From Delftia acidovorans NBRC 14950 (GTDB lineage Bacteria > Pseudomonadota > Gammaproteobacteria > Burkholderiales > Burkholderiaceae_C): 32,000 nt of DNA. Where the stretch lies: contig NZ_BCZP01000002.1 in NCBI RefSeq assembly GCF_001598795.1, forward strand, positions 330,001 through 362,000, read 5' to 3'. The notes under the pieces are model-generated. The model did no database searches and was not told the DNA's origin. It saw only the letters and a list, made by a program, of their open reading frames with translations. The first letter of the stretch is position 1. Every line of letters starts with the position of its first letter. Below are positions 8,444-22,307 of the stretch, one piece after another. The position numbers were made by a program, and so were the translations under genes.

Positions 8444-9111
8444 CAAGACAGTTGCGACCCGCTCGGCCGTACCAGTCAGGCTTCACCCTGGTGGAGTTGC
8501 TGGTTGCGATGGTGCTGCTTTCCATGCTGACATTGGGGCTGGCCTCGGTGATGTCCACCGTATCGCAGACTCAGGAGAGAGTCGATGTTCGACTGGACCG
8601 CATGGATCATCAGCGCGTGGCGATTGGTTTTTTGCGGTCCACTCTCGGACAGATATCGGCGGTGAGGCGCCAAGCAGGGATGCGCAAACAAGGTGAGAGC
8701 GAGTTCTTCTTTCAAGGGGGACCGCGCGGCATGCAATGGCTGGGCATCATGCCGGCCCGGTTCGGGATGGGCGGACGTACGCATTTCAGGCTGGCTGTCG
8801 AGGGTGATGCCTTGACACTGTATTTCGCGCCGTGGAAGGCTGCGGATGTTGCACCTGATTGGGCGCAGGGGCAGTCGTATGTGATCGACCGGGGCGTCAC
8901 GGCTTTTGCCCTGAGTTACCAAAATGTCAAAGTAGGGGTCTCGCAGTGGTCGCCACAATGGGAAAATGAGAAGGAACTGCCCTCGGCGGTACAAATACAG
9001 CTTCAAGGCGGTTCTGGCAGTTGGCCCCTGATTGCCGTGGAGTTCCATACACCACCGGCGACGAATCGCTCTACCAGCGGCGGGGCTGTCTTTGGGGGCG
9101 GTCAGCGATGA
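8440..9111 (+). CDS. gspJ: Minor pseudopilin, GspJ-like
   Basis: GTGA overlap with gspI. Prepilin motif QSG|FTLVELLVAMVLL. 223 aa, the usual GspJ size and position. Confidence 0.75.
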   Translation: MTRQLRPARPYQSGFTLVELLVAMVLLSMLTLGLASVMSTVSQTQERVDVRLDRMDHQRVAIGFLRSTLGQISAVRRQAGMRKQGESEFFFQGGPRGMQWLGIMPARFGMGGRTHFRLAVEGDALTLYFAPWKAADVAPDWAQGQSYVIDRGVTAFALSYQNVKVGVSQWSPQWENEKELPSAVQIQLQGGSGSWPLIAVEFHTPPATNRSTSGGAVFGGGQR

Positions 9112-9881
9112 AGAGTCTGCAACGCTGGCCGATAGCGGCTTCGAACAAGGGGATGGCGCTGGTTCTTGTGCTGTGGATCGTTGCGGCGCTTGCCATCTTT
9201 GCTAACAGCTTGGGTGGCGTGGTTCGCAGGGAAGCGGCGGTGGCCAGCGTGGTGCGCAACTCCATCTATGGCCGAGGGGCTGGTGAAGCAGCCATTTTCC
9301 GGTTACTGCAGAAAATAGCAATCCAACCCTCAGACTTTGCGGAACGCCGAGTAGAGGGTGTCCCCTGGGGGGGGCAGATAATAGAGGTCGAAGTCGCCCC
9401 CTGGAGCGGGCTGATCAACATCAATGCTGCCCCGCAGAATCTGTTGGCGGTGGTGTTGAAAAAACTGGGTGTACCTCAGTCCGAAGCTTTGGCGCAGACG
9501 CTGGTTGAAACACGCCAGGTGGTCAGGGCAGGATCTGCGGGCGTGGCCTGGGAATCCCCCGAGGATTTGCTGCAGGTGCCAGGGATGACCTATGGCATCT
9601 ACGCACAAATGCGGCCCTTGATCGTTGCAGATACAGGCGGAAGATCCGGAGTCAACCTGAAGGCGGCCCCGGAACTGCTGCTGAGGCTGCTTGAGGGTGT
9701 GGAGGATGGGGCGGTTCGCGGAAATATCACCAGTACGCGTTATCGACTGACGGCCAGAGTACCCGTCGAGGGAGGGGGCGCCGTGCTGGTCATCCGAGAT
9801 GTGGACGTTTCAAGGGCACGCCAGAATTCACTGCCCTGGGTGGTGCTGTCCGCTTCCCAGGTGTGGGCTGGGCGTATGTGA
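9108..9881 (+). CDS. gspK: Minor pseudopilin, GspK-like
   Basis: ATGA overlap with gspJ. NKG|MALVLVLWIVAAL lacks Glu+5, as is typical of GspK. Two helix-hairpin-helix-like segments are present (ININAAPQNLLAVVL and VNLKAAPELLLRLL). Confidence 0.75.
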   Translation: MKSLQRWPIAASNKGMALVLVLWIVAALAIFANSLGGVVRREAAVASVVRNSIYGRGAGEAAIFRLLQKIAIQPSDFAERRVEGVPWGGQIIEVEVAPWSGLININAAPQNLLAVVLKKLGVPQSEALAQTLVETRQVVRAGSAGVAWESPEDLLQVPGMTYGIYAQMRPLIVADTGGRSGVNLKAAPELLLRLLEGVEDGAVRGNITSTRYRLTARVPVEGGGAVLVIRDVDVSRARQNSLPWVVLSASQVWAGRM

Positions 9882-9985
9882 TGTACTCAATCGGATGTGG
9901 CGCCAGAAGTTAGGAGAGCGCTGGACCGCTGCTAGCCGGAAGGAAAGAAAGTGAAAGTAATACTATTGAATGGTTGTGGCGTCGT

Positions 9986-11104
9986 ATGACATTGATGACT
10001 TCTGATGCCAAACTGTTCGGTTTGGACTTGCGGGGGCTTTCATCGGAGCTTCGTGAGGCATGGCAGGCACTTCAGCGCCTACCATTGCTCAGCCGGCTGC
10101 TTCCGGCATCGATGGTGCAAGTCTGGGTTGGTGCCCAGGCGCCTATCGTCGCTAGGGCGCAGGGCGTCAACATCGAGTGGCTCGATGGATCGACCACTCT
10201 CTTGGCGCAAGCACAGTACACGGCGGTTCTGTTGGAGGACGATCAGGTTCTGCAGCGGGTTCTGAAGCTTCCGCAAATGGGACCGACTGCAATGAGGGGC
10301 GCCATTGAGCTGGACGTGCAGACGATGACGCCCTTTGCTCCACAGGACACGCTTTGGGCCTATGCGGTCCGGCCCGCTGCGCGGGCTGGTGCGCTGCTGC
10401 ATGTTGAAGTGGTACTTGCCTCGCGTGCGCAAGTTGAACAGGTGCTGCGCCAGCGGGCTTCAAGCATGCCGGAGGGTGTCCACCCTGAGGTTTGGGCCCC
10501 CACCAGTGGCAGCCCTGTCGTGTTGCCGGGTTTTGGCGAAACATCGCGCTGGCGTGGCGAAGCAAAGCGGGGCGGCTGGATCGGGTTGGGCGTGATCGGG
10601 GTGCTCGTCATGGCCCTGGCCCTGGCGGTCACTCCTACCGCGCAACTGAGATTGCGTGCGGTCGATGCGGGAGAACAATTTTCCCGGCTCAGCAAATCCA
10701 CCTCCGAGGTTGTGGCACAGCGCCAGGCCCTGGTTGAAGGAGTGCAAGATCTGGGCAAACTGCAGGAGCGTGTGCAGCAGCAAATCAATCACCTGCAGGT
10801 GCTGGCGACGCTGACAAAGGTATTGCCCGATGACACAGCAGCTCAGCGCGTGGTGTTCAGAGGCAGCAAACTTACGGTCCAAGGGCTTACCAACAATGCG
10901 TCTAACGTAGTGGCATTGCTGGCTAAGACTCCTGGCTTTCAGGAAGTACGACTGCCAACGGCCGTGACGCGTGTCCCCGGATCTGGCAAGGAGAGCTTTA
11001 CGCTGGAGGCGAACATCGATCCGCAGGTCCTGGGCATGCTCGCCAAGGCAGAAGAGGACAAGCCGCCAGCGGAAGGCGGGGCGATTGCCAAGGAGGTCCA
11101 ATGA
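9986..11104 (+). CDS. gspL: GspL-like bitopic assembly-platform protein
   Basis: Frame of ORF 9974..11104, with possible starts at TTG 9974, ATG 9986 or ATG 9995. A ~200-aa cytoplasmic part contains LKLPQMGPTAMRGAIELDVQTMTPF (GspL-like). A single TM (WIGLGVIGVLVMALALAV) and a periplasmic coiled/ferredoxin-like tail follow. The position between gspK and gspM fits GspL. Confidence 0.65.
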   Translation: MTLMTSDAKLFGLDLRGLSSELREAWQALQRLPLLSRLLPASMVQVWVGAQAPIVARAQGVNIEWLDGSTTLLAQAQYTAVLLEDDQVLQRVLKLPQMGPTAMRGAIELDVQTMTPFAPQDTLWAYAVRPAARAGALLHVEVVLASRAQVEQVLRQRASSMPEGVHPEVWAPTSGSPVVLPGFGETSRWRGEAKRGGWIGLGVIGVLVMALALAVTPTAQLRLRAVDAGEQFSRLSKSTSEVVAQRQALVEGVQDLGKLQERVQQQINHLQVLATLTKVLPDDTAAQRVVFRGSKLTVQGLTNNASNVVALLAKTPGFQEVRLPTAVTRVPGSGKESFTLEANIDPQVLGMLAKAEEDKPPAEGGAIAKEVQ

Positions 11105-11688
11105 CAGCAGGCGCGCAGAAGCTGACCTTGCGTCAATGGGCCCTTCTTGGTGGGATCGCCGTCCTCTTGGTTGTTCCACTGTTACTCCTGGGAAGCTGGA
11201 TTTATTCCAAGCACCAATGGGCCCAGGAACAACTGGGCACACTGGAGCCGCGCTACGCGAGGCTTGCCGGCATGCAGGGGCAGACGGAGGAAATTCAGGA
11301 AGCGCTGAAGAGGATCGAGTCCACCAAGGCTCTGCACATCTACCCGGCAGAGCAGGACAGCACTCAGACTGGCAATGCACTTCAGCAACGCTTGCGGACC
11401 GTCTTGGACAAAGCGGGACTCTCCGTGGTCAGCAGCCAAGTGCGTCCTACCTCTGAATCAGGTGAATCTGATCAGGGTCCTTATGAACGCATTTCCGTGT
11501 CGATGACGGCAGAGGGCGAATGGTCTGCCATCCAATTGGCCATCATGTCATTACCCGAAGTTACGCCCACCGTGTGGCTCGATGATCTGCAACTGAATCT
11601 GCTGGGCAATCTGGAAAGCAACAACCTCAGAGTGCCGCCCAAGATCAGCGCGCAGTTTGTTTTCAGCATTCTTCGGAGCAAGCCGTGA
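11101..11688 (+). CDS. gspM: GspM-like protein
   Basis: ATGA overlap with gspL. 195 aa with one N-terminal TM (WALLGGIAVLLVVPLLLLGSWI). The size, topology and position match GspM. I did not recognise strong sequence motifs. Confidence 0.6.
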   Translation: MTAGAQKLTLRQWALLGGIAVLLVVPLLLLGSWIYSKHQWAQEQLGTLEPRYARLAGMQGQTEEIQEALKRIESTKALHIYPAEQDSTQTGNALQQRLRTVLDKAGLSVVSSQVRPTSESGESDQGPYERISVSMTAEGEWSAIQLAIMSLPEVTPTVWLDDLQLNLLGNLESNNLRVPPKISAQFVFSILRSKP

Positions 11689-12362
11689 ACCAGCGCATTC
11701 TTTGGACCGCAGGGTTGTCCGTGCCCGTGGCGCTGTTGGGGGGAGCACTTGCGTGGATGTGGTTGACACCGCAGATGCAGCTCAAAAACGCTGGCTGGGA
11801 GGCTCCGCATCCGATCAAGGCAGATATTCAATCGCTTGTGCCTGCCGAGCAGGCACTTTCTGGTAACAAGCCGCAGGGCGAGATGCAGCTGCTGGAGATG
11901 CACGAACGGCCGCTGTTCGTGATGAACCGCAGGCCCCCACCGCCTCCCCCACCGCCAGAGCCTGAGAAAAAAGTCGAAGAAATCCCTGATGCCTGGGTGC
12001 AGGCGCGTGTCACAGGCATTTTTGAGGGGCCTGTCACCGGGATCATTGTCCATATCGATGGCAAGGAGCGACGGCTCATGCTCAACCAGAGTTTTGCGGG
12101 CTGGAAGCTGCAAGGCATAGAGCAGCGCAGCATCCTTTTGGAGCGCGGCGGTCAGATACGTTCGTTGCAATTGGCGAAGGCCGTCCTCGACAAAGGCCCT
12201 AGCATTCCGGCCAGCATGCGCGTGCCTTCCGTCGGCGCGGGGCCTTCGCCTGGCAGCAACTCTGGCGAATCGGCTTCTGAGCGCGCAGAAGGGGAGGCAG
12301 GCGCCCCCCCGGCTCGGCCAGCACCGCGTGCCGTATTCGGCGGAACCTCGAGCCGCAAATGA
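11685..12362 (+). CDS. GspC/XpsN-like secretin-coupling protein (no PDZ domain)
   Basis: GTGA overlap with gspM and ATGA overlap with gspD. It has an N-terminal TM, a poly-Pro linker RRPPPPPPPPPEPEKK, then a short beta-rich segment (VTGIFEGPVTGIIVHIDGKERRLMLNQSFAGWKLQGIEQRSILLERGG) resembling the HR/PilP-like secretin-binding fold. Its position equals that of XpsN. Confidence 0.5.
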   Translation: MNQRILWTAGLSVPVALLGGALAWMWLTPQMQLKNAGWEAPHPIKADIQSLVPAEQALSGNKPQGEMQLLEMHERPLFVMNRRPPPPPPPPEPEKKVEEIPDAWVQARVTGIFEGPVTGIIVHIDGKERRLMLNQSFAGWKLQGIEQRSILLERGGQIRSLQLAKAVLDKGPSIPASMRVPSVGAGPSPGSNSGESASERAEGEAGAPPARPAPRAVFGGTSSRK

Positions 12363-14854
12363 AACAGTTTCTTAAGAAAACCATGAAATTGCAAAACAGA
12401 CATTTTCATACGGCGCTGTCGCTGGCGGTTTGCCAGCTGTTGGTTGCCTGTGCACAGCCCCAGCAGAACAACTATGTCAGCCATTTCGGCGCGGGTCAGC
12501 AATCCGAAGGCTATGTGTTCAATGACGAAGATCAAAGCGTGGGCAAGAAGGCCTCCGAAAAATCATCGACGCCCGAGCCACGCCTCCTTGAGGGGACTGG
12601 TAAATTGCTGGCCGATGCCAAGCCGTCCAAGGCCTTGAAAGATGCGCAGGTCAAGCTCAGTTTCGAGGATGCGCCTCTGGCCCAGGTCGTGCGGACAGTG
12701 CTGGGGGATATTCTTGCGCTTGACTATGTGCTGCACCCGCCGATTACTGGAACAGTCACCCTGAGCACGCAGCAGAATGTCTCGGGGGACAACGCGTTGT
12801 ATCTGCTGGAGGCGGCCTTGCAGGCCAATGGCATGGGTATAGCGCGTGATGCTCGTGGCACTTACCATGTCGGCCGTCTTGATGCGCTCAAGGGCTTGGG
12901 GGCTGCAGTACGGCAGGCGTCGCCCACTCAGCCACTGGCGCCAGGATACGGAGCCATTGTTGTGCCGCTGAACTATATAGGTGCCAATGAAATGGCGGCC
13001 ATCTTGCGTCCCATGGTGCCGGGTGATGCCATTCTTCGTGTTGACAACGTGCGCAACATGCTGGTGATGGCCGGATCCCGTGCACAGGCGGAAGGTTGGC
13101 TTGAGATGGTTCGCACCTTCGACGTAAATGTTCTGGAAGGCATGTCGGTAGGCGTTTTTCCTCTCAAATATGTCTCTATCCAGGAAGTCAGTGCCGCTTT
13201 GCAACTGATGAGCGGGGGCGGTGCCCCTGGGGCTGGGGCTCCTGGCGCGGGTGTGGCTCCTGCTGCAACTACGGCAAGGCCAGGGGGGGCGGCGACTGCA
13301 GCACCTGGCGCTTCCATGGCGGCTCTGGGCGAAGGCAATCCGCTATTTGGTGCCCTGCGCATCATTCCCATTGAGCGGCTCAACAGTATCTTGGTCATCA
13401 CGCCTCGCGCCTCCTATCTGGATGAGGCGCGCCGCTGGATTGCCAAGCTCGACCAGGCTGGCACGGGTGGGGCGCAGCCGCAACTCAATATCTACAAAGT
13501 GCAAAACGGCAATGCTCGGCACCTGGCAAGTGTTCTGTCGGGTATTTTTGGAGGGTCTGCCGGAGGTATGTCTACCAACAGCGGCGTGGCGCCAGGACTG
13601 GGTACATCCACGACGAGCATGGGGGGGAGCAGCTTCGGAAGCGGCGGCTTGGGTAGCAGCAGCTTTGGCAGTGGTGGTTTTGGCGGCGGTGGTTTGAGTA
13701 GTGGCGGCTTTGGTGGCGGCAGTTTTGGCAGCGGTGGCTTTGGTGGTGGTGGACTCGGCGGGGCGGGGCGTGGCTTCGGGCAGACCGGAAGCACCGGCCA
13801 GTTGGGCGGAGTGGCAGGGGCAAGCGCCGCAGCCACCAGTCTGGGCAGCGTTCGTGTCATGGCGGATGAACTCAACAACTCCGTGCTGGTCTGGGGTACG
13901 CCCGCAGAGTACGAGCGTATAGAGGCGGCGCTCAAGAAACTGGATTTGCCTCCCACGCAAGTGCTGATAGAGGCAAGCATCGTGGAGGTGACGCTGAACG
14001 ACACCTTGCGGTACGGTTTGCAATGGGCCTTCAGTGGTGATGTCGGCAACAAGGGTTATAGCGGTACGGGCAGTGTGCTGACCGGGGATGCTCCCGGTTC
14101 AACAGGATTCGCAGAAACTGGCGGACTGGCGGCAACTCTTGGCTCAGGCTTCAACTACACGGTCAAGAACTCGCTGGGCAATATCAAGGCAGTGCTCACT
14201 GCTCTTTCGGGCAAGACCAATGTCAAGGTGGTGGCCAGCCCTACGGTGATGGTGCTGGATAACCATACGGCGGGCATCATGGTGGGCACACAGCAGCCCT
14301 ATTCGGCGGGCTCCACCACATCGACAACGACGGGAGTTACTACCAACATTCAGTACAAGGATACCGGGGTCATCCTGCAAGTCACTCCTTCGGTCAATTC
14401 CGGCAATATCGTCACCATGAATGTCGATCAGACTGTCTCGGCGCTGGGCTCGAATGTAACTGTAGGGGGGTCCAGCAATCCCTCCTTCTCGCAGCGGCAG
14501 ATCTCCAGCAGGGTGGCAGTGCGCTCTGGAGAGTCAATTGTCATGGGCGGACTGATCCAGGAGCGCTCTACCAACACGCGCAGTGGCATCCCCATACTGC
14601 ATGATCTTCCGGTGGTTGGAAATCTCTTCGGGCAGACATCGAACGTGGGGGATCGAACAGAGCTGCTTGTCGTCATCACGCCAAGAGTCGTTCGCACGGA
14701 CATTGATGTGCGGGTGGTCAGCGACGATTTGCGTGAGCAAATGCGTTCTTTGACGCCCTTGCTGAAGTCACCCAATACAGTTCCTGCTGCTGACGACGGT
14801 GCAAGGGGCAAGCCGCTGGTGGAGGTGGGGCCCCTGACGCCTGAGCAGCGCTAG
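12359..14854 (+). CDS. gspD: Secretin GspD, predicted lipoprotein (liposecretin), with low-complexity insertions
   Basis: 831 aa. Lipobox LLVA|C with Cys31 (codon 12449-12451). N0-N3-like repeats are present (LSFEDAPLAQVVRTVL..., VPLNYIGANEMAAIL..., FPLKYVSIQEV..., IYKVQNGNARHLASVL...). The secretin core reads VLIEASIVEVTLNDTLRYGLQW ... GIPILHDLPVVGNLFG ... ELLVVITPRVV. Confidence 0.93.
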   Translation: MKQFLKKTMKLQNRHFHTALSLAVCQLLVACAQPQQNNYVSHFGAGQQSEGYVFNDEDQSVGKKASEKSSTPEPRLLEGTGKLLADAKPSKALKDAQVKLSFEDAPLAQVVRTVLGDILALDYVLHPPITGTVTLSTQQNVSGDNALYLLEAALQANGMGIARDARGTYHVGRLDALKGLGAAVRQASPTQPLAPGYGAIVVPLNYIGANEMAAILRPMVPGDAILRVDNVRNMLVMAGSRAQAEGWLEMVRTFDVNVLEGMSVGVFPLKYVSIQEVSAALQLMSGGGAPGAGAPGAGVAPAATTARPGGAATAAPGASMAALGEGNPLFGALRIIPIERLNSILVITPRASYLDEARRWIAKLDQAGTGGAQPQLNIYKVQNGNARHLASVLSGIFGGSAGGMSTNSGVAPGLGTSTTSMGGSSFGSGGLGSSSFGSGGFGGGGLSSGGFGGGSFGSGGFGGGGLGGAGRGFGQTGSTGQLGGVAGASAAATSLGSVRVMADELNNSVLVWGTPAEYERIEAALKKLDLPPTQVLIEASIVEVTLNDTLRYGLQWAFSGDVGNKGYSGTGSVLTGDAPGSTGFAETGGLAATLGSGFNYTVKNSLGNIKAVLTALSGKTNVKVVASPTVMVLDNHTAGIMVGTQQPYSAGSTTSTTTGVTTNIQYKDTGVILQVTPSVNSGNIVTMNVDQTVSALGSNVTVGGSSNPSFSQRQISSRVAVRSGESIVMGGLIQERSTNTRSGIPILHDLPVVGNLFGQTSNVGDRTELLVVITPRVVRTDIDVRVVSDDLREQMRSLTPLLKSPNTVPAADDGARGKPLVEVGPLTPEQR
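13547..13843 (+). repeat. Gly/Ser/Phe-rich low-complexity insertion in the N3-like domain of GspD (about residues 397-495)
   Basis: FGGSAGGMSTNSG...GGSSFGSGGLGSSSFGSGGFGGGGLSSGGFGGGSFGSGGFGGGGLGGAGRGFGQTGSTGQLGG, with 8 FG dipeptides. The DNA shows imperfect tandem ggc/ggt/ttt-ggc repeats. Confidence 0.9.
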
Positions 14855-14868
14855 CAGCTCAAGTTCCC

Positions 14869-14894
14869 GGAACATTCTTCTTCAAAGATGTTCC
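14869..14894 (+). promoter_or_regulatory. Hairpin/dyad ggaacat-N12-atgttcc just after gspD
   Basis: 7-bp inverted repeat in an AT-rich 68-bp spacer, followed by aaataccttttt. It could be a weak attenuator or an operator. Function is not assignable from sequence. Confidence 0.25.
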
Positions 14895-14922
14895 AAATAC
14901 CTTTTTGGACCAAGATACACAT

Positions 14923-15369
14923 ATGAACACGTTGACAAAGATCCCTGCATTGGCAGGCATGCGCCGGATTTTGTGGGGTGCGGGTGTGGCTGGCGCCTTG
15001 GTGCTGGCCGGCTGTGCCACCACAACAGGGGGCGAGCAGAGCAAGGCTCAGAAACCCGAGGAGGCCGTAACGCAGCGATCGAACGAGTTCTGGAAGGTTC
15101 GCATGGCGGGGGATGTCGGTCAGGCCTATGCTTTCACCACTCCAGGCTATCGTGCGGTCAACAGCCTGGAGAAGTACCGGCTGAACCACGGCGCCGTCCC
15201 GTCCCTCAGTGGTGGCTCGATCGCCTGGGTCAAGTGCGAGGACAAGCGCTGCGAGGTTCGCAAGAACTTCACCACCAGCAGCCCGGTCATGGGCAATACA
15301 CAGATTCCTATCTCTATCAGCGAGGTGTGGACGCAGGAAGACGGCCAGTGGTGGCTGTTCCTGGAATAA
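14923..15369 (+). CDS. Small lipoprotein of unknown function (NTF2/DUF4878-like appearance)
   Basis: ATG 14923 in the frame of ORF 14905..15369. Signal plus lipobox LVLAG|C. The mature part contains EFWKVRMAGDVGQAYAF and the C-terminal EDGQWWLFLE, reminiscent of small NTF2-like lipoproteins. Confidence 0.75.
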   Translation: MNTLTKIPALAGMRRILWGAGVAGALVLAGCATTTGGEQSKAQKPEEAVTQRSNEFWKVRMAGDVGQAYAFTTPGYRAVNSLEKYRLNHGAVPSLSGGSIAWVKCEDKRCEVRKNFTTSSPVMGNTQIPISISEVWTQEDGQWWLFLE

Positions 15370-15675
15370 GGCGGCTATGGATCTGGCGCGCCGTGCGGGC
15401 TGGCGTCAGGCCAAAGGTTGGTAGCGTTCTCCGGGCATGCCTCATGCTCGGTATGGACGAAGCCAAAAGTCGGGCAGGGTAGGCGCTGGAAGCAATGTTT
15501 GCCATAATGCGCCGTCCCTGATCTGGTGCTCGCTAGGGAAGTGTTGTTTTTTTTCAAAACAAGGCTTGGGCGCCTCCGAAAAGCGGTATGGGGGCATGAC
15601 CGGCTGTGCTACGATTCCCTGGCGATCAATCGTGGTGGTTGCAACTACCTTATCTTTTTACTGGAGATAGTTCTT

Positions 15676-17184
15676 ATGAAGAAAAATGTTCTGGCCCTGA
15701 GCATTGCTGCCATGGTTGGTGGCCTGGGCTTCGCTGGCGCTGCGTCCGCACAATCGTTCCAAGTGAACGAAAGCGGCACAGGCCACATCCTGGTGGTGCC
15801 CTACTACACCGCCCAGAACGGCAACATGTCCGTGTTCCACCTGACCAACACCGACACCATCCGTGGTAAGGCTGTGAAGGTGCGTTTCCGCGGTGCTTCG
15901 AACTCCGACGACGTGCTTGACTTCCAAGTCTTCATGTCGCCTGGTGACGTGTGGACCGCTGCTGTGACGGCTGACGCCGCTGGCAAGGCCCAGCTGGTGA
16001 CTGCAGACAACACCTGCACGCTGCCCGCTATCGCCAAGAACACGCCTGTTCCGTTCGTGACCGATCGTCTGGCTCGTCAAGGCTGGACTGACGCGGACAA
16101 GGCTGCTCAGACTCGTGAAGGCTACGTTGAAATCCTCAACATGGCCGACATCTCGAATCTGAACCCTGCTGCTTCGTCCTTGTACAAGGCCACGAAGCAC
16201 GCGAACGGCGTTGCTCCTTGCACCTCCTCGGTCCTGCAAGACACGCTGCTGGGCTACCCCGCCATGACTTCGCAGAACGAACTGTCCGCGCCCACCGCGA
16301 CGCTGACCGGTTCGTGGTATGTGATCAACGTGGCTCAGTCCACGACGTTCTCTGGCGCCGCTCCCGCTCTGGTGGGCAATGCTCCTACACGCGTCGTGTT
16401 CTCGCCCCAAGTTGAAGGCGAAACCACGTTCAAGACGTCTGACCCGCTGATGGTTGCTGGCACTATCAAGGCTCAGCACTATGACGTGCCTGACCTGTCG
16501 ACGCCTTACTTCGCCAGCCAATCGCTGACGAGCCAGACCGACGCCGACACCAATGCTACGAACCTGACGAATGCTCTGGGTCGTAACACCATCATGAACC
16601 AGTACGCAACGGATCTCAGCATCTCTGCTAAGACCGACTGGGTGTTCTCGATGCCTACCCGCCGCTACACTGTGGCTGCTAACTATGCATCGACGGCCAC
16701 GAACTATGCTGGTCAGCTGAATGTGTCTGCCACTGGCACGCCTACGACTGCTGAACTGAACGCTTACACGTACATCAACAGCGCTGTGACCGGCAACATC
16801 TTCTCGACAGGTGCCAAGGTTTCCGCCAATGACCAAGGTCAGCTGTGCGTGACGGCTTCCAAGCAAGAGTTCTACGACCGTGAAGAAAACGTGCAGTCCA
16901 GCGGCGCGATCTTCTCGCCCGGCACGACCAAGACGGCCAAGCTGTGCGGTGAAGTCAGCGTGCTGTCCTTCACGTCCGATGCTTCGGCTCTGGGCGCTGC
17001 TGTGGCACGTCAGACCGTGGCTGCTCCCTACACTAACGGTTGGGGCACCATCGGCTTCGGTACGGACCGCGCTCCCGTCCTGGGCGCTGCGTTCCTGAAG
17101 CTGACCAACCCCCAAGCCGTTCCTGGCACCGTGGGTACGTACGGCATCACCTGGCCCCACGCTTACGGCTCTGCCGCTCAGTAA
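15676..17184 (+). CDS. Abundant-type secreted/surface protein of unknown family; candidate T2SS cargo
   Basis: ATG 15676 is preceded by GGAGA. Sec signal MKKNVLALSIAAMVGGLGFAGAASA|QSF. The protein is rich in Ala/Thr/Ser/Asn/Gly and has 4 Cys. Codon usage shifts to GCT/GGT/CGT/TTC/AAC, unlike its neighbours. I recognised no domain by eye. Confidence 0.85.
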   Translation: MKKNVLALSIAAMVGGLGFAGAASAQSFQVNESGTGHILVVPYYTAQNGNMSVFHLTNTDTIRGKAVKVRFRGASNSDDVLDFQVFMSPGDVWTAAVTADAAGKAQLVTADNTCTLPAIAKNTPVPFVTDRLARQGWTDADKAAQTREGYVEILNMADISNLNPAASSLYKATKHANGVAPCTSSVLQDTLLGYPAMTSQNELSAPTATLTGSWYVINVAQSTTFSGAAPALVGNAPTRVVFSPQVEGETTFKTSDPLMVAGTIKAQHYDVPDLSTPYFASQSLTSQTDADTNATNLTNALGRNTIMNQYATDLSISAKTDWVFSMPTRRYTVAANYASTATNYAGQLNVSATGTPTTAELNAYTYINSAVTGNIFSTGAKVSANDQGQLCVTASKQEFYDREENVQSSGAIFSPGTTKTAKLCGEVSVLSFTSDASALGAAVARQTVAAPYTNGWGTIGFGTDRAPVLGAAFLKLTNPQAVPGTVGTYGITWPHAYGSAAQ

Positions 17185-17218
17185 TCGGGCACTTTCACGC
17201 GCAAGCGTGATCTAGAGA

Positions 17219-17252
17219 AGGCGGGAGGAAACTCCCGCCTTTTTTGTTTTTT
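17219..17252 (+). terminator. Strong Rho-independent terminator after the cargo gene
   Basis: aggcgggag-gaaa-ctcccgcct (9-bp GC-rich stem, GAAA loop) followed by tttttgtttttt. Confidence 0.9.
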
Positions 17253-17264
17253 CGGAAAGGACTT

Positions 17265-18200
17265 ATGACTGCTTCCATCCAACGACTGACGATGGCCTCG
17301 CTGATGTTGACTGCCATGATGGCAGGCCAGTGGGCCTGGGCTGAAGCCAAGTTGCCCGACGCTGCGGATGCCCGCAAGCCCGCTGCTGTTCAGACGCTGG
17401 CACAAGGCCAGAATATAGTGATCACGGATCTGGACGTGCAGGCGGATGCGCAACGCATCCCCCCAGATGTGCGCCCCTTGATTCTGGCGCGCTCACAGAA
17501 TGTGGGGCAGATGGCGTCTGATCTCTATGTCTTCCGCAACATGGCCAAGATGGCGCAGCAGCTGGGAATGGAGCGCGATCCCCGGGTGGCTGCTGCCCTG
17601 CAGGTTGCGCGTGACCGGGTGCTTGCCAACGCCTGGATGGATGCGCTGGATGAAAAGAACATGCCCAGCCTGGAGGCCGCAGAAAAGCAGGCGCGCAGCA
17701 TTTACCAAGCACAGCCAGATCGCTTCAAGGTTGGTGAAGAAGTGCGTGCGCGCCACATTCTGATTTCAGGCAAGGATGCCGAGGCGCGTGCCAAGGCAGA
17801 ACAAGTGTTGGCGCAGCTCAAGTCAGGTGCAGACTTTGCAACGTTGGCCAGGGAAGTGTCGGCTGACAAGGGCAGTGCAGCGCGTGGTGGTGACCTGGGC
17901 TTTTTCGGCAGGGATCGCATGGCTCCGGAGTTCGAGAAGGCCGCTTTCGCGCTGCAAAAGCCCGGTGATCTCTCCACTGTCGTGGAGACCCAGTTTGGTC
18001 AGCACATCATCCAACTGGAAGCACGTCGTCCCGCCGGCATCAAGCCTTTCGAGGAAGTGCGCGAAGGTATGGTCAAAGAAATCCGCTCCATCGCTGCCAA
18101 GGACGTGCGCTCTGCAACGGCCGAGCAACTCCGTGCGGATGTCAAGGTTGACAATGCTGCGGTTGAAGCCTTCGCTTCAAAGAACGAACCCAAGCCCTGA
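17265..18200 (+). CDS. Periplasmic parvulin-type peptidyl-prolyl cis-trans isomerase (PpiC/SurA/PrsA-like)
   Basis: ATG 17265. Signal ...AGQWAWA|EAK. The rotamase domain reads VRARHILISGKD...GADFATLAREVSADKGSAARGGDLGFFGRDRMAPEFEKAAFAL...TQFGQHIIQLE. Confidence 0.88.
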   Translation: MTASIQRLTMASLMLTAMMAGQWAWAEAKLPDAADARKPAAVQTLAQGQNIVITDLDVQADAQRIPPDVRPLILARSQNVGQMASDLYVFRNMAKMAQQLGMERDPRVAAALQVARDRVLANAWMDALDEKNMPSLEAAEKQARSIYQAQPDRFKVGEEVRARHILISGKDAEARAKAEQVLAQLKSGADFATLAREVSADKGSAARGGDLGFFGRDRMAPEFEKAAFALQKPGDLSTVVETQFGQHIIQLEARRPAGIKPFEEVREGMVKEIRSIAAKDVRSATAEQLRADVKVDNAAVEAFASKNEPKP

Positions 18201-18375
18201 GCATTGAGCCGCGCGTGTGCTATCGAGCCATGTGTTGCCTTGTTGTTGCAAGCATTTGAAATGCTTTGTCTTCATCGTAGGCACGTGACGCTGTGATGCG
18301 CGAAAATGCCAGGTTTGGCATGAACTGAAGTGCCGCCGCCGTCTCTGGCGCGCGGCACTTGTCGCATAACAACGC

Positions 18376-19176
18376 ATGTACTCTTTACTCGGCGAATGCC
18401 GCGCGCTGTGGCAGGCTCGCAGCCTGCTGTGGGTGATGACCCGGCGCGAAGTGGCTGCCCGCCACGCAGGCACGGCCGCGGGCGTGCTCTGGCCCTATCT
18501 GCAGCCGCTGCTCACCGTGGCGGCCTACTACCTCGTGTTCGACGTGGTGTTCTCGATGCGCCTTGGCGACAACGCACCCACGCATGCCGTGGGCGCGTTT
18601 CTTGTTGTGGGCGCCTTGCCGTGGATGGCGTTTTGCGACGCTACGGCACGTGGCATGAACAGTCTGGTCGAGGCGGGTGGCATTCTGCAAAAGAACCCGT
18701 TGCCGCCAGTGCTGTTTCCCATGCGTGCGGTACTGGCCAGCAGTGTGATCTTCGGACCCTTGTTGTTGCTGGTGGCCTTGGCTTATCTGCCCCAGCACGG
18801 CTTGACCTGGTCGCTCGTGGCACTCATCCCCCTGTTGCTGGGCCAGCTGCTGCTGTGCGCCCTGCTGGCTTATGCGCTGGCTATTCTGACGGCGGCACTG
18901 CGCGATGTGGGGCAGCTTGTGACCTTCTTTCTGTCCGTCGGTATCTATCTCTCGCCCATTCTTTTTCCGCTGGCCTTGTTTCCCGAGCGCTGGCGCTGGG
19001 TGCTATGGGCCAATCCCATGACGGCGTTGGTTCTTGGCTACCAGAATGTGCTGCTGCAGGGGCTGTGGCCTCAAATGGCGGTCTGGGCGGCTTTGGGCAT
19101 CTGGATTCTGGTTTTGGCTGTGCTGCTCAATGGCTTGGTGCGACGCAGCCGTGATCAACTGGTGGACTGGCTATGA
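18376..19176 (+). CDS. wzm: ABC-2 type polysaccharide export permease (Wzm)
   Basis: 266 aa and polytopic. The N-terminal LWQARSLLWVMTRREVAARHAGTAAGVLWPYLQPLL is typical of O-antigen/teichoic ABC-2 permeases. There is a 4-nt overlap with wzt. Confidence 0.9.
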   Translation: MYSLLGECRALWQARSLLWVMTRREVAARHAGTAAGVLWPYLQPLLTVAAYYLVFDVVFSMRLGDNAPTHAVGAFLVVGALPWMAFCDATARGMNSLVEAGGILQKNPLPPVLFPMRAVLASSVIFGPLLLLVALAYLPQHGLTWSLVALIPLLLGQLLLCALLAYALAILTAALRDVGQLVTFFLSVGIYLSPILFPLALFPERWRWVLWANPMTALVLGYQNVLLQGLWPQMAVWAALGIWILVLAVLLNGLVRRSRDQLVDWL

Positions 19177-20453
19177 ACGCCAAGCATGTCGAATTGCCTG
19201 ATGACCTGGTACTGCGTGTGCGCAATCTGGGCAAGGAATACAAACTTTATCCCTCGCCGCGAGCGCGCTTCAAGGCCTTGCTGACCGGTGTTGCCACGCA
19301 CCGAAGCCATTGGGCATTGCGGGATGTGTCATTCGAATTGCGCCGAGGCCAGTGCATTGGTGTGATTGGCGACAACGGTGCAGGCAAGAGCTCGCTGCTC
19401 AAGCTGCTTGCTGGCACCTTGCAGCCCAGTTGCGGGCAAATAGAGCGTGTGGGTCGGGTCACGGCCATTCTGGAGTTGGGCGCGGGATTTCACCCTGATT
19501 TCAGCGGACGCGACAATCTGTATTTCGGTGGCAGCCTGATTGGTATCTCCCCTGAGCGCATGCGTGAGCTGGAGCCCGAAATCGCAGCCTTTGCGGAGTT
19601 GGGCGAAGCACTGGAGCGGCCGGTCAAGACCTACTCTTCGGGGATGGCGGTGCGCCTGGCGTTTGCACTGGTGACGGCCGTGCAGCCCGATGTGCTGATC
19701 ATTGACGAGGCGCTCGCTGTAGGCGACCAGCATTTCCAGAAGAAGTGCATTGAGCGCATCATGGCCTTCCGCAACAGCGGCTGCACCATCCTGTTTTGTT
19801 CCCATAGCCCTTATCACATCCGCCATCTTTGCGATGCAGCCCTGTGGCTGCGCGGCGGGCATGTGGCGCAGTTTGGTGCGACCGAGCCAGTGCTGGCCGC
19901 CTACGATGCACATACCCGCGAGCGCCAGGAGCGCGAGCAGAGGGCTTTGTGCGGCGAGATGCTGCCTGCTGAAGTGGAGCCCGCTGTGCCAGCGCCTGCT
20001 GCGGATGAAGTGCCTCCCGCGCCGGTCGCTGCCGTGGACAGCGGCACAGCCTGCATCCTGTCCGTGGATGTGAAGGATCTGGCTGAACCTGTGGGGGATC
20101 AGCCAGGGTTGCTTCAGAGCCAGGATCTGGTTGTGACCATTACCGCGAGAGGACGTGGCAACGAGCGGCCGCACATCGGCTTCATGATCGAGCAGTCCAA
20201 GGGCGTGGGCATTACTTCGCTGGCAACGCATGAGGATGGTGCAGCCCCGCGGCAATTGCCAGACGGAAGCTGGCAGACCGTGCTGACCTTTCCCGAGTTG
20301 CCTCTGCACAGCGGAGACTATGTGATCAGCGCCTTCCTGTTCGATGAAACCGGGCTGGCCGTCTATGACGAATGGTTCCAGTTCCTGCACCTGCGCTTTA
20401 TTTTCCCCAAGCCCCTGCCTGGACTGGTGCGCCTGCCCCACCACTGGAGCTGA
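19173..20453 (+). CDS. wzt: Polysaccharide ABC exporter ATP-binding protein (Wzt) with a C-terminal carbohydrate-binding domain
   Basis: Walker A GDNGAGKSS, signature YSSGM and Walker B LIIDEA. An Ala/Pro linker is followed by a ~135-aa beta-rich C-terminal domain (residues ~292-426) of Wzt_C type. Confidence 0.9.
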   Translation: MNAKHVELPDDLVLRVRNLGKEYKLYPSPRARFKALLTGVATHRSHWALRDVSFELRRGQCIGVIGDNGAGKSSLLKLLAGTLQPSCGQIERVGRVTAILELGAGFHPDFSGRDNLYFGGSLIGISPERMRELEPEIAAFAELGEALERPVKTYSSGMAVRLAFALVTAVQPDVLIIDEALAVGDQHFQKKCIERIMAFRNSGCTILFCSHSPYHIRHLCDAALWLRGGHVAQFGATEPVLAAYDAHTRERQEREQRALCGEMLPAEVEPAVPAPAADEVPPAPVAAVDSGTACILSVDVKDLAEPVGDQPGLLQSQDLVVTITARGRGNERPHIGFMIEQSKGVGITSLATHEDGAAPRQLPDGSWQTVLTFPELPLHSGDYVISAFLFDETGLAVYDEWFQFLHLRFIFPKPLPGLVRLPHHWS

Positions 20454-20507
20454 GCGGCTCTGCCACACCCGCGCAAGCGGCTCGGCTGTCTCCCTATTCC
20501 ATACCCC

Positions 20508-21404
20508 ATGACATCTGACAATTCTTCTACTCCCATCAGCGATGGGCAGCGTTTGCTGAATGAAGCCCTGCAATTGCTGGCAAGCGGCGACCGGGCTGGT
20601 GCAGCACAGGTCCTAGCCCGTGCCCGCGAAATGGACGACAGCCTGTTGGAGGCGCATTCCCTGATCGAGGCCAATGGTCTGGTGGGTTCGTTTTCCAACA
20701 TGACGGGACTCGATTGCCGGATTTCTGCGCAGGACGATATCTTCGGCTTCTTCCGTGGTCACCCTTCCAGCGTCAATCCCCTGCGCGACTACTTCGCCGA
20801 CGGTTGGCGCACGCTGTCGGAACTGATGCTGCTGCTTGAGGCTGTGGACAAGCCTTTGCTGCGCACGGCCAGCGTCCTGGAGTTCGCCAGCGGTCACGGC
20901 CGCTTTACGCGGCACCTGGTCAAGGCGCTGGGGGCGGAACGGGTCACCGTCTCGGACATCGTGGTCGATGCTGTGGATTTTTCGCAGCAGACCTTCGGCG
21001 TGAAGGGCTTTGCTTCGGCCAGCGTGCCGGAGCAGGTACGCTGGCCGCAGCAGTACGAGCTGGTGTTCGTGCTCTCGCTGTTCAGCCATCTGCCGCGCTC
21101 GACCTGGACGCGCTGGCTGCAGGTGCTGCGCGATGCGGTGGCTCCTGGCGGGTTGCTGGTTTTCAGCACGCACGGCATGAAGGCCGCAAATTTCGACAGC
21201 GTGAAGCTGGATGACGAGGGATTTTTCTTTGCCCCGTCCAGCGAGTCGAATGCCATCGATGCCAATGAGTATGGAACGGCGTTCACTTCCGAGCAATTCG
21301 TCCTGGACCGCATTGCCGAAACCTGGGGCACCGATGCGCTGCGCCATCGATCACTTGTGCATTTCTGGAACCACCAGGATGCCTATGTGCTTCAGCGGCT
21401 GTGA
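20508..21404 (+). CDS. Class I SAM-dependent methyltransferase
   Basis: Motif I VLEFASGHGRFTRHL, post-I VSDIV and motif LVFVLSLFSHL...GGLLVFSTHG. 298 aa. Confidence 0.8.
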   Translation: MTSDNSSTPISDGQRLLNEALQLLASGDRAGAAQVLARAREMDDSLLEAHSLIEANGLVGSFSNMTGLDCRISAQDDIFGFFRGHPSSVNPLRDYFADGWRTLSELMLLLEAVDKPLLRTASVLEFASGHGRFTRHLVKALGAERVTVSDIVVDAVDFSQQTFGVKGFASASVPEQVRWPQQYELVFVLSLFSHLPRSTWTRWLQVLRDAVAPGGLLVFSTHGMKAANFDSVKLDDEGFFFAPSSESNAIDANEYGTAFTSEQFVLDRIAETWGTDALRHRSLVHFWNHQDAYVLQRL

Positions 21405-21446
21405 GCGTGTTGACAGGGTTGTAGAGAGAACAGAGAGGACGATTGC

Positions 21447-22307
21447 ATGAGTTGGATGCTGCGTTTGCAGGAACGGCTGTTGGGCCTGGCGCCATGGGAC
21501 GCCGGTAAGATCACCGATGAGTGGTTTCGTGCGCATTTCAACTATGCAGCGGATCTGGCCCATGACTGGCTCGGACGGTCGTTGGACCTGTCCAAGGCCA
21601 GGTTGCTGAATTTCGGATGTGGCGATGGCATCACCGATCTGGCTTTGGTACTGCGCCATGGCGCAACCTCCATCCATGGCATCGATATCCGTCAGGAGTA
21701 CGCCAAGCTGCCCCGCATTGCACGCGAGCAGTTGGGCATGTCGCGCATTCCCGCTGCGCTGAGCTTCGAGACCATCGTGCCGAATTCGCCATTGGCCGGC
21801 CGGCATGCGAACTATGACGGATTGCTCAGCTGGTCCACCTTCGAGCATGTGCAGCGCGACAAGGTGCTGCCGATCCTGTCCGACCTGCATGCCTGCCTGC
21901 GCTCGGGAGGCGTGTTCTTCCTGCAAATCGAGCCCTTGTTTCATTCTCCCTGGGGCTCGCACCTGCGCCGCTACGACGATGTGCCCTGGCACCACTTGCT
22001 GGCGTCGGAGGAGGAGTTGTGGAGCATCATCGAAAAGCATGAAGGTCCGCTGGACGCCGCCGAGGTGGACTTCGGCTTTGCTGATTTCGGTGTCGATGGC
22101 TACAAGCGCTTTGTCTTCAAGGAGTACCAGGCGCTGAACCGGTTGACGGCAGACGAGCTGGTCGATATCGCTCGTCAGGCCGGCTTTGAGGTGTTGCGCG
22201 AGGAGCGGCGCCAGGTGGACATGGCCATTCCCGAGGCGCTGGCGGGGCGCTACCCCGAGGAGTGGCTGCGCAACAACGAGATTTTGCTGTTGCTGGGCAA
22301 GAGCTGA
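21447..22307 (+). CDS. Class I SAM-dependent methyltransferase
   Basis: Motif I LLNFGCGDGITDLAL, followed by GIDI and LLSWSTFEHV...GGVFFLQIEP. 286 aa. Confidence 0.8.
   Translation: MSWMLRLQERLLGLAPWDAGKITDEWFRAHFNYAADLAHDWLGRSLDLSKARLLNFGCGDGITDLALVLRHGATSIHGIDIRQEYAKLPRIAREQLGMSRIPAALSFETIVPNSPLAGRHANYDGLLSWSTFEHVQRDKVLPILSDLHACLRSGGVFFLQIEPLFHSPWGSHLRRYDDVPWHHLLASEEELWSIIEKHEGPLDAAEVDFGFADFGVDGYKRFVFKEYQALNRLTADELVDIARQAGFEVLREERRQVDMAIPEALAGRYPEEWLRNNEILLLLGKS

Follow-up and report, generated by a model that had tools for sequence, protein, structure and literature searches.

A probable npdA S-layer gene and its type II secretion and glycan neighbours in a Delftia genome

A gene for a secreted protein of 502 residues lies directly downstream of a type II secretion system (T2SS) cluster in a Delftia strain. 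What is this protein, and what might the surrounding genes do for it? We address this question in a stretch of 32,000 nucleotides (the window). The preliminary description of this DNA treated the product as an orphan and proposed, on the model of Aeromonas vapA, that it is an S-layer or other abundant surface protein served by the dedicated T2SS next to it. We conclude that the gene is very probably npdA, the S-layer structural gene of this strain. This identity is already known, the family having been published in 2011 and 2023, and is no discovery; since a published S-layer family is merely re-identified, the core finding alone adds little. NpdA homologues abound in public genomes and metagenomes, and because many of them are unnamed or labelled 'hypothetical', a correct label aids annotation.

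Family membership and predicted structure of NpdA

The open reading frame and the parts of its product are as follows.

15676-17184, + strand: npdA, with its ATG at 15676 and stop codon at 17182-17184, encoding 502 aa
15676-15750, + strand: Sec signal peptide of 25 codons, MKKNVLALSIAAMVGGLGFAGAASA, cleaved after AASA and followed by QSF
15751-17184, + strand: mature NpdA (477 aa, 50.1 kDa; BLASTP) and the stop codon

The homology to a verified NpdA is full-length. In BLASTP, residues 1-497 match NpdA of Paracidovorax citrulli AAC00-1 (WP_011797163) with 52% identity and an E value of 2e-161. The top database match (98%) is a D. tsuruhatensis 'cell surface protein', which is the label that NCBI gives to NpdA homologues. 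One search returned more than 3,000 of these homologues and another gave 2,747 clusters at 50% identity, so the gene is no orphan and belongs to a named, published family. In some genomes (L076, L080) there is also a second npdA paralogue, unlinked and lacking the secretion genes.

In Delftia and Acidovorax, NpdA is known as the protein of the surface layer and of "nanopods" (PMC3110197, PMC10765051). The S-layer is lost on deletion of npdA in P. citrulli (PMC10765051), and in Delftia sp. Cs1-4 disruption of npdA removes both the S-layer and the nanopods (PMC3110197). The protein is dominant in the outer membrane and in nanopods, and its oligomers, of at least 150 kDa, withstand SDS (PMC3110197). 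Cryo-EM revealed an S-layer in 15 of 16 additional npdA-carrying cultures, and D. tsuruhatensis is among the listed carriers (PMC3110197, PMC10765051). An upstream gsp cluster is a published trait of the family (PMC3110197, PMC10765051), and here gspE-F-G-H-I-J-K-L-M-C-D and a lipoprotein gene, X, precede npdA on the same strand at 4133-15369. With a full-length NpdA homologue at hand, and with orthologue mutants that lack the S-layer (PMC10765051, PMC3110197), the proposal of an S-layer or abundant surface protein is upheld. The protein shares with NpdA of Cs1-4 and P. citrulli AAC00-1 the full-length homology, the signal peptide, the upstream gsp cluster, a similar size and the lack of known domains. 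Delftia is the genus of the founding family member as well as of the allele described here.

The N-terminal Sec signal of about 25 residues, as read from the sequence, is identical at 24 of 25 positions to the P. citrulli NpdA peptide, for which the SignalP 6 score is 0.9989 (PMC10765051). This bears out the signal, with cleavage between AASA and QSF, that had been proposed earlier. The mature protein has a pI of 5.4 and contains 13.8% A, 12.8% T and 8.2% S; D, E, K and R together make up 12.9%. An A/T/S-rich protein with few charged residues and four Cys had been described before, and the values computed on the mature protein agree. The Cys residues, at positions 114, 182, 391 and 424, are kept in at least 90% of 144 NpdA-family sequences. 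All the invariant residues of the family alignment are present together with these four nearly invariant Cys.

The searches revealed no other conserved domain in NpdA. There were 0 hits in Pfam and only noise well under cutoff in NCBIfam, and neither sequence nor profile searches of the PDB returned a match, in keeping with the earlier remark that no enzyme or domain signature is recognisable. The AlphaFold2 (AF2) model (pLDDT 90.8, pTM 0.91, mostly beta) predicts a compact beta-rich protein without a membrane barrel. A Foldseek search with such a model had been suggested in the preliminary description as a check. When it was run against 350,542 PDB chains, nothing fell below E 1e-3, the best TM-scores were 0.13-0.16, and the protein was assigned to no known enzyme family. 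The matches in PDB and BFVD are weak jelly-roll, ConA and laminin-G-like noise (TM at most 0.17 over the query), and we rejected a fold assignment at this level. The absence of a PDB match for the AF2 model was not found in the NpdA literature searched. A confident model with no PDB relative would represent an uncharacterised fold, which makes the lattice worth examining by cryo-EM or cryo-ET.

These results bear on two other readings of the gene. It could encode a porin, a binding protein or another abundant protein of the periplasm or integral to the outer membrane, whose place beside the T2SS is due to chance. The Sec signal, high beta content and expression-type codons also fit major porins. 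However, no porin or beta-barrel is among the 50 best PDB matches listed by Foldseek and nothing falls below E 1e-3; the outer-membrane and binding-protein models of Pfam and NCBIfam gave no match, and the homologues are proven extracellular lattice subunits. We therefore give this reading very little credence. Just as improbable, in our view, is a secreted enzyme or nutrient-scavenging exoprotein as cargo of the T2SS. Though T2SS substrates are usually hydrolases and the sequence of NpdA gives no evident function, no catalytic family emerges by sequence or fold, and the homologues serve as structural subunits of lattices. Conservation falls on dispersed Asp, Glu, Pro, Gly and Cys residues that form no recognisable active-site motif.

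Codon usage and transcription signals of npdA

Codon usage sets npdA apart from its surroundings. GCT accounts for 42 of its 73 Ala codons, whereas its share in 16 neighbouring genes is 14% (p 2e-18). GGG and GGA are absent, TTC:TTT is 18:0 and GAA:GAG is 10:1. When the bias is measured as npdA versus neighbouring genes across 80 loci, it recurs in all 80 orthologous loci relative to their own neighbours. The pattern is typical of strong translational selection and, as far as codons can indicate, suits very high expression. The codon shift reported for npdA earlier is thus confirmed, whereas the accompanying picture of neighbours that use 'almost only GCC/GCG and GGC' applies to gspE and gspF only; the other neighbours have mixed codon use. 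An antisense ORF of 500 aa (15658-17160) was dismissed as a gene; we attribute it to the strong bias of the coding strand.

The elements that would define the transcription unit are as follows.

15607-15615, + strand: extended -10 element TGCTACGAT, promoter-like, conserved across genera
15622-15675, + strand: predicted 5' UTR of about 54 nt, conserved across genera at the DNA level
17213-17252, + strand: intrinsic terminator, with a hairpin at 17213-17246, a 15-pair stem with 7 G-C and a TTTTTTGTTTTTT tail

In 70 distinct sequences upstream of npdA, drawn from many genera, the pattern TG-n-TA-nnn-T never varies. The weak -35 explains why a simple sigma-70 consensus scan returned no promoter near npdA, so it is cross-genus conservation alone that carries the promoter call. 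From the position of the extended -10, transcription is predicted to start near 15622, giving a 5' UTR of about 54 nt. A leader of some 300 nt had been proposed before. The intergenic gap does span 306 nt, but we rejected a leader of that length in favour of the shorter UTR on the strength of the invariant extended -10 in the 70 upstream sequences. The UTR has a conserved core, GCG..AATCAATCGTGG..GTTGC, and holds a small hairpin at 15634-15649, a T-run and the GGAGA Shine-Dalgarno already noted in the preliminary description, at 15663-15667, 8 nt ahead of the ATG. A structured RNA in the leader was also considered but not adopted. Rfam returned no match and RNAalifold no consensus structure for the leader, and covariation was weak or none in two hand-drawn hairpins, one of which, of 5 bp, was 86% paired with only weak covariation.

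Downstream, the 70 nt past the npdA stop codon fold at -34.7 kcal/mol, and a comparable hairpin with a T-run lies 3' of npdA in 66 of 81 loci. The terminator is real, though its earlier ranking as the strongest in the window is true only in part, since two canonical terminators score best there and this is one of them. An Rfam match to isrP on the minus strand (17214-17280; 28.5 bits against a gathering threshold of 45) overlaps the terminator hairpin and was put down to chance.

Secretion, folding and glycan genes around npdA

The neighbouring genes on both sides of npdA are as follows.

4133-14854, + strand: T2SS gene cluster (Pfam, NCBIfam)
4133-5860, + strand: gspE
5853-7070, + strand: gspF
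7103-7543, + strand: gspG
7596-8039, + strand: gspH
8036-8443, + strand: gspI
8440-9111, + strand: gspJ
9108-9881, + strand: gspK
9986-11104, + strand: gspL
11101-11688, + strand: gspM
11685-12362, + strand: gspC-like gene
12359-14854, + strand: gspD
14923-15369, + strand: lipoprotein X, 148 aa, lipobox LAGC, between gspD and npdA
17265-18200, + strand: ppiC, a secreted PrsA/SurA-like parvulin peptidyl-prolyl isomerase (rotamase domains)
18376-22307, + strand: ABC-transporter-dependent surface glycan module (Pfam)
18376-19176, + strand: wzm (Pfam)
19173-20453, + strand: wzt with a Wzt_C domain (Pfam)
20508-21404, + strand: SAM methyltransferase (Pfam)
21447-22307, + strand: SAM methyltransferase (Pfam)

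The T2SS that had been seen beside npdA is a complete set directly upstream of it (Pfam, NCBIfam). GspE passes the TIGR02533 equivalog cutoff (634 bits vs 630), as does GspD for TIGR02517 (449 vs 351), and GspM is of the XpsM type (84 vs a cutoff of 60). GspC and GspK have weak matches only. With GspF, G-K, L, M and C present as well, the set is that of a canonical T2SS. T2SS synteny is kept in 69-74 of 82 loci, and the order gspF..gspD-X-npdA-ppiC-wzm-wzt in about 70-77 of 82. In its N-terminal domain (residues 21-73), GspE has an MshEN motif of the c-di-GMP-binding type.

Lipoprotein X is present at a fixed offset in 77 of 82 loci, and it gave no match in Pfam, NCBIfam or PDB sequence searches. 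Its AF2 model, built with database homologues, has an overall pLDDT of 82.5, which rises above 88 in residues 45-148. Foldseek matches this model to NTF2-like domains (E 3e-5 to 1e-3, probability 1.0), and X is thus predicted to have an NTF2-like fold. A role of X as a T2SS pilotin was considered, but to our knowledge the modelled fold resembles none of the known T2SS pilotins.

The parvulin gene lies directly 3' of npdA in 77 of 82 loci; the NCBIfam matches of its product (PrsA, SurA and PpiC-type) fall below equivalog cutoffs. Next come wzm and wzt, 1.2 kb downstream of npdA, and then the methyltransferases. Of the 82 loci, 76-77 have wzm and wzt after npdA-ppiC, and 49-55 have the methyltransferases there. 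We suggest that the glycan module may serve to anchor the S-layer, because abcA has such a link to the layer in Aeromonas and because lipopolysaccharide is required for assembly of the D. acidovorans layer (PMC3110197, PMC10765051). Alternatively, the adjacency of the O-antigen cluster could be historical, not functional. The downstream synteny of parvulin, Wzm/Wzt and methyltransferases (about 77 of 82 loci), the conserved NTF2-like lipoprotein gene between gspD and npdA, and the MshEN motif of GspE were not found in the NpdA literature searched.

Taken together, these genes suggest a pathway. We propose that npdA would be transcribed as its own unit, from the extended -10 about 70 nt before the start codon to the strong terminator. 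The 502-aa precursor would pass through the inner membrane via Sec and lose its signal peptide of 25 residues. Mature NpdA (50 kDa) would fold in the periplasm, probably with two disulfide bonds formed by the four conserved Cys and probably with help from the co-located PrsA/SurA-like parvulin. We infer, as the literature does, that export depends on the T2SS, and the adjacent GspC-M/GspD machinery would then push NpdA through the outer membrane. The NTF2-like lipoprotein may have a part in this pathway too. On the lipopolysaccharide, NpdA would assemble into a paracrystalline lattice that may also sheathe outer-membrane vesicles ('nanopods'). Most likely, a methyl-capped O-polysaccharide, which the downstream Wzm/Wzt cluster would make and export, would serve as the anchor. 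Together, the promoter, 5' UTR, subunit, foldase, lipoprotein, T2SS and O-antigen exporter provide a testable model for the making and anchoring of a Gram-negative S-layer.

Known S-layer systems resemble this arrangement to different degrees. In Aeromonas, O-polysaccharide tethers the layer, whose attachment requires an O-antigen ABC transporter. The vapA gene of Aeromonas salmonicida, like npdA, lies beside a dedicated T2SS-type exporter and encodes an S-layer protein of about 50 kDa that depends on Sec, and abcA, an O-polysaccharide ABC transporter gene, is located near vapA as wzm/wzt are near npdA. The npdA locus thus has the Aeromonas-type architecture, a T2SS-type exporter and an O-polysaccharide ABC transporter flanking the S-layer gene, and the likeness is one of architecture only, not of family membership. 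NpdA and VapA share no Pfam or NCBIfam model. The Delftia locus differs in its additional parvulin and NTF2-like lipoprotein and in its complete T2SS (E to M, C and D). NpdA is treated as a new S-layer protein (SLP) family by the authors of PMC10765051. Slr4 of Pseudoalteromonas tunicata is also encoded next to a T2SS and is broadly distributed across proteobacterial classes. Unlike NpdA, it is described as a separate SLP and is mainly marine, and slr4 lies upstream of the T2SS whereas npdA lies downstream. RsaA of Caulobacter crescentus, an abundant S-layer protein anchored to the LPS O-antigen, likewise has its own secretion system next door, but this is a type I system. RsaA has RTX-type repeats and no cleaved N-terminal signal peptide. 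NpdA is not of this type, as it has a Sec signal and an adjacent T2SS, and its Pfam search gave no RTX or HemolysinCabind match.

Allele variation within Delftia

The allele described here is distinct within its genus, being 46-66% identical to other Delftia NpdA alleles. It is most distant from a 570-aa Delftia allele (L074; 46%) and shares 54-66% with three others. The L074 allele matches WP_275825027 in the published NpdA data file; going by its predicted mass of 61 kDa, the Cs1-4 work was probably done on this allele.

Because the allele is so divergent, we considered that this NpdA-family surface protein could have a main role other than a cell-covering lattice in this strain, for example as a sheath of outer-membrane vesicles or nanopods only, an adhesin, a matrix protein or a phage decoy. 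In addition to the identity of only 46-66%, one of the 16 additional npdA-carrying cultures lacked an S-layer in cryo-EM, and the unlinked second npdA copies have no secretion genes, which suggests that family members may have diversified in role. However, the whole conserved locus (T2SS, lipoprotein X, ppiC and wzm/wzt) is intact, and the codon bias, promoter and terminator are the same as in the orthologues. The family-invariant residues and the four Cys are all present, and in Cs1-4 the nanopod sheath is itself the S-layer (PMC3110197). We consider a different main role unlikely, and the S-layer structural gene remains our preferred identification.

The divergence extends beyond npdA, over the following stretch.

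7600-18300, no strand: hypervariable stretch resembling an 'S-layer cassette', minimum extent, from nucleotide identity to four other Delftia loci

To the left of about 7.5 kb, the identity to the Delftia loci is 96-99% (92-99% for L074), and from about 8.0 kb it drops to 65-76%. The low-identity stretch ends at 18.3 kb (L010), 21 kb (L005), 22 kb (L008) or 24.4 kb (L074), beyond which identity is back to about 89-99%. The parvulin diverges together with npdA inside Delftia (52-64% amino-acid identity vs 96-100% in the flanks). In these comparisons, the segment that runs from gspH through ppiC, some 10.5 kb, has the appearance of an S-layer cassette that strains can exchange. In Clostridioides difficile, an S-layer cassette consists of a strain-variable S-layer gene and neighbouring secretion or cell-wall genes, and recombination moves it between genomes that are otherwise nearly identical. 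The Delftia pattern (65-76% vs 96-99% identity), which comes from the comparison of this locus with four others, resembles it, though C. difficile is Gram-positive, its proteins are unrelated and it uses a SecA2 route. The cassette pattern in Delftia was not found in the NpdA literature searched.

A tentative reading, to which we give somewhat less than even chances, is that the npdA locus of Delftia is an exchangeable 'surface-coat supergene' in which ancient allele classes are swapped by recombination. The block, of at least 10.5 kb, would comprise the S-layer subunit, GspH-K, L, M, C, the secretin, the NTF2-like lipoprotein and the parvulin, and its GspH-K, GspL/M/C and secretin would be the cargo-facing and outer parts of the T2SS. 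Its allele classes would be as divergent as different genera in genomes that are otherwise 96-99% identical. If this is true, cargo and secretion machinery would evolve together as matched partners, with diversifying selection exerted, for example, by phage or predators, and c-di-GMP may gate export via the MshEN domain of GspE. A strain-variable cassette would offer a natural experiment on T2SS substrate selection and could show if each T2SS accepts its own cargo alone. Between alleles, the conservation of NpdA is a mosaic. The signal peptide is 92-100% conserved and residues 26-160 are 65-83% identical, whereas residues 341-400 are only 21-45% identical; crossovers inside the block may fall in the conserved npdA promoter and N-terminal region.

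The npdA gene and its family

On sequence comparison, the gene at 15676-17184 is npdA, encoding nanopod protein A (NpdA), because its product matches NpdA of Paracidovorax citrulli over the full length (52% identity, BLASTP E 2e-161; sequence from the supplement of PMC10765051), 24 of the 25 signal peptide residues are the same, and both proteins carry the motifs SAKTDW.FSMPTRRY, FSPG, CGE.SVLSF and GTYGITWPH. The preliminary description had called the protein an orphan, which does not hold: one database search returned more than 3,000 homologues, the best being a Delftia tsuruhatensis "cell surface protein" (98%), and an exhaustive search gave 2,747 clusters at 50% identity (E up to 1e-3). 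The description is otherwise largely right, and its interpretation as an S-layer protein is supported by this full-length homology, since deletion of npdA in P. citrulli AAC00-1 leaves no S-layer (PMC10765051). In Delftia sp. Cs1-4, NpdA is a dominant protein of the outer membrane and of nanopods and assembles into SDS-stable oligomers (at least 150 kDa); disruption of its gene eliminates both S-layer and nanopods (PMC3110197). Orthologues are reported from 62 betaproteobacterial and 49 gammaproteobacterial species, including D. tsuruhatensis, with about 12 gsp genes upstream (PMC10765051). The window protein is thus a member of a published family, in the genus of its first description, and is already known. 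The interest rests on the conserved downstream module, the likewise conserved npdA promoter and UTR, the cassette that varies between strains, the uncharacterised fold, the NTF2-like lipoprotein X and a c-di-GMP motif in GspE. We regard these side observations as leads, not results.

Features of the npdA region (window coordinates)
about 7600-18300, up to about 24400: hypervariable block, gspH to ppiC and in some comparisons wzm/wzt; 65-76% identity vs 96-99% in flanks
14923-15369, +: lipoprotein X, 148 aa, no family, between gspD and npdA
15607-15615, +: predicted extended -10 box TGCTACGAT; its TG-n-TA-nnn-T pattern is invariant across 70 upstream regions
15663-15667, +: Shine-Dalgarno GGAGA, 8 nt 5' of the npdA ATG
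15676 (ATG) to stop 17182-17184, +: npdA, 502 aa (ORF analysis)
17213-17246, +: npdA terminator, followed by a T-run

The precursor begins with MKKNVLALSIAAMVGGLGFAGAASA, with cleavage before QSF, and the signal peptide proposed earlier is confirmed by its P. citrulli counterpart. The mature protein has 477 aa (50.1 kDa, computed pI 5.4). Its composition is as first described, with abundant A, T, S, V, G and N, 12.9% charged residues and four cysteines (114, 182, 391 and 424). Searches of Pfam, NCBIfam and PDB sequences were empty, in agreement with the earlier failure to recognise a domain, as was a profile search of PDB sequences. An AF2 model built from a 144-sequence alignment is confident and mostly beta (pLDDT 90.8, pTM 0.91). 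The structure search suggested as a check on the S-layer reading assigned this model to no known enzyme family: Foldseek against PDB and BFVD gave nothing below E 1e-3, and the returns were only weak jelly-roll-like noise (TM-scores over the query no higher than 0.17). In the alignment, the four cysteines are conserved or invariant, as are a number of Asp, Glu, Pro and Gly positions, and two disulfide bonds are plausible.

Many database homologues (P0001, 546 aa; P0009, 554 aa; and others) are annotated with about 44-52 additional N-terminal residues. The corresponding start here would be a GTG at 15526, and these longer starts are probably mis-called, since the extension (15526-15675) would cross the conserved promoter, UTR and Shine-Dalgarno sequence. 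A 500-aa ORF on the reverse strand (15658-17160), antisense to nearly all of npdA, is taken as a side effect of the strongly biased npdA coding strand and not as a gene. Two metagenome-assembled genomes each hold a second npdA paralogue (locus L076, 10001-11533; locus L080, 3674-5299), at loci without T2SS, lipoprotein X, ppiC, wzm/wzt or the conserved upstream element.

Expression signals of npdA

The codon bias first noticed in the window gene is borne out and recurs across the family. Alanine is encoded by GCT at 42 of 73 positions in npdA, whereas the GCT share across 16 neighbouring genes is 14% (p 2e-18). Neither GGG nor GGA is used in npdA, and the codon ratios are 18:0 for TTC:TTT and 10:1 for GAA:GAG. 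When npdA was compared with its own neighbours at each of 80 orthologous loci, GCT among alanine codons (medians 0.48 vs 0.12) and GGT among glycine codons were higher in npdA at all 80, and CGT, TTC, GAA, CCT and GTT at 75-79. Such a pattern is expected where translational selection acts on a gene with very high expression.

When 70 distinct upstream regions from numerous genera are aligned (A5), the approximately 75 nt before the ATG (15600-15675) prove to be conserved as DNA across genera whose coding sequences are merely 40-50% identical. TG-n-TA-nnn-T, an extended -10 pattern, is invariant. It is followed by GCG(TA)ATCAATCGTGG..GTTGC.., a T-run and the Shine-Dalgarno sequence. From the position of the -10 box, we infer a transcription start near 15622. 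The 306-nt gap upstream of npdA, previously described as a leader of about 300 nt, is real, but its reading as a leader is not supported, since the box implies a UTR of about 54 nt. A simple sigma-70 scan did not find this promoter site because the -35 is poor. The conserved UTR core consists of AATCAATCGTGG and GTTGCGC, and in Delftia contains the 8-bp palindrome GTTGCAAC. The leader matched no Rfam family and gave no RNAalifold consensus structure; a small candidate hairpin at 15634-15649 reaches 86% pairing but has only weak covariation. Given the lack of a clear RNA structure, the core could be a protein-binding site.

A strong terminator is present as claimed, ranking among the two best canonical ones in the window; a comparable element follows npdA at 66 of 81 loci. 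A weak Rfam isrP sRNA match on the reverse strand (17214-17280; E 0.008, 28.5 bits where the gathering score is 45) overlaps the terminator hairpin and the ppiC start, and is probably due to chance.

Secretion-system and glycan genes around npdA

The adjacent T2SS noted earlier is complete, with gspE, F, G, H, I, J, K, L and M, a weak GspC-like gene and gspD lying 5' of npdA, and GspE and GspD above NCBIfam equivalog cutoffs. The N-terminus of GspE (gspE, 4133-5860) carries an MshEN-type c-di-GMP-binding motif at residues 21-73 (about 4193-4351; NF053729, 55.4 bits vs a cutoff of 38; also a Pfam MshEN match), in which both RLGxxLLxxG..LxxALxxQ-like repeats are discernible. The motif raises the possibility that c-di-GMP influences how the S-layer subunit is exported. 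Lipoprotein X is probably the "X" ORF ("hypothetical protein") in the locus figure of PMC10765051. Its AF2 model (pLDDT 82.5 overall, above 88 for residues 45-148) matches NTF2-like domains (Foldseek E 3e-5 to 1e-3, probability 1.0), and two cysteines, 105 and 110, are invariant.

The genes 3' of npdA encode a secreted PrsA/SurA-like parvulin (ppiC), Wzm, Wzt, which bears a Wzt_C domain, and then two methyltransferases and a pair of acyltransferases. The opposite strand encodes a methyltransferase-GT2-GT1 protein (about 1,263 aa), and a GT4 initiating transferase lies farther downstream. Taken as a set, these genes make up an O-polysaccharide pathway of the ABC-transporter-dependent type. In 82 loci, which come from Comamonadaceae, Rhodocyclales and relatives, the neighbours occur at nearly fixed offsets: lipoprotein X, ppiC and wzt each at 77, wzm at 76, and the methyltransferases (ppiC to methyltransferases, 17265-22307 in the window) at 49-55. 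In most loci, Wzm and Wzt share 58-82% identity between genera and are better conserved than NpdA. This succession is unmentioned in PMC10765051, where a term search found no LPS, O-antigen, isomerase or promoter.

The arrangement resembles that in Aeromonas salmonicida, where vapA adjoins both its exporter and abcA, whose ABC transporter product is required for O-polysaccharide, and where the A-layer binds O-polysaccharide. Because of this likeness, and because the D. acidovorans layer needs LPS for its assembly (PMC3110197), our best inference by analogy is that the Wzm/Wzt glycan would anchor the NpdA layer.

A variable block, possibly an S-layer cassette, within Delftia

NpdA varies widely within the genus. 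Identity to the window protein is 66% in D. acidovorans CP022656 (L005), 64% in the D. tsuruhatensis type strain (L010), 54% in Delftia sp. 60 (L008) and 46% for a 570-aa allele (L074), which the PMC10765051 data file lists for D. tsuruhatensis and D. lacustris. The window protein is nearer to that of Acidovorax delafieldii (L058, 61%) than to two of these Delftia alleles. Sliding nucleotide identity to the four Delftia loci is 96-99% at 5.5-7.5 kb (L074, 92-99%), falls to 65-76% from about 8.0 kb, and returns to about 89-99% at 18.3 kb (L010), 21 kb (L005), 22 kb (L008) and 24.4 kb (L074). The Delftia genomes are otherwise nearly identical; the left boundary of the block is common to the comparisons, and the right boundaries differ. 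At 15.5-16.0 kb, identity rises to 82-91% in one conserved island that takes in the npdA promoter and UTR as well as the sequence for the signal peptide and N-terminal domain.

Amino-acid identity to the window (L008, L005)
gspF: 99%, 99%
gspG: 97%, 99%
gspH: 91%, 90%
gspI: 82%, 81%
gspJ: 70%, 79%
gspK: 53%, 59%
gspL: 48%, 66%
gspM: 59%, 78%
gspC-like: 44%, 57%
gspD: 67%, 73%
X: 36%, 56%
npdA: 54%, 66%
ppiC: 53%, 64%
wzm: 73%, 95%
wzt: 65%, 93%
last acyltransferase: 99%, 99%

For the central genes, divergence within the genus equals that between genera, and lipoprotein X is the most divergent (36-61% within Delftia). From sequence, the block resembles an exchangeable cassette for the S-layer, with cargo, outer T2SS parts, X and the foldase moving together, whether by co-adaptation or by linkage alone. 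Within NpdA, conservation between alleles is a mosaic: 92-100% in the signal peptide, 65-83% at residues 26-160, 42-57% at 161-300, 65-75% at 301-340, 21-45% at 341-400 and 52-69% at 401-502. GC falls to 0.59-0.61 over 8-24 kb, from the distal T2SS genes through npdA to the glycan cluster, vs 0.65-0.68 on both sides. The match between low GC and hypervariability is imperfect, since 22-24 kb is low in GC and yet the Delftia loci that can be aligned over it are 89-99% identical.
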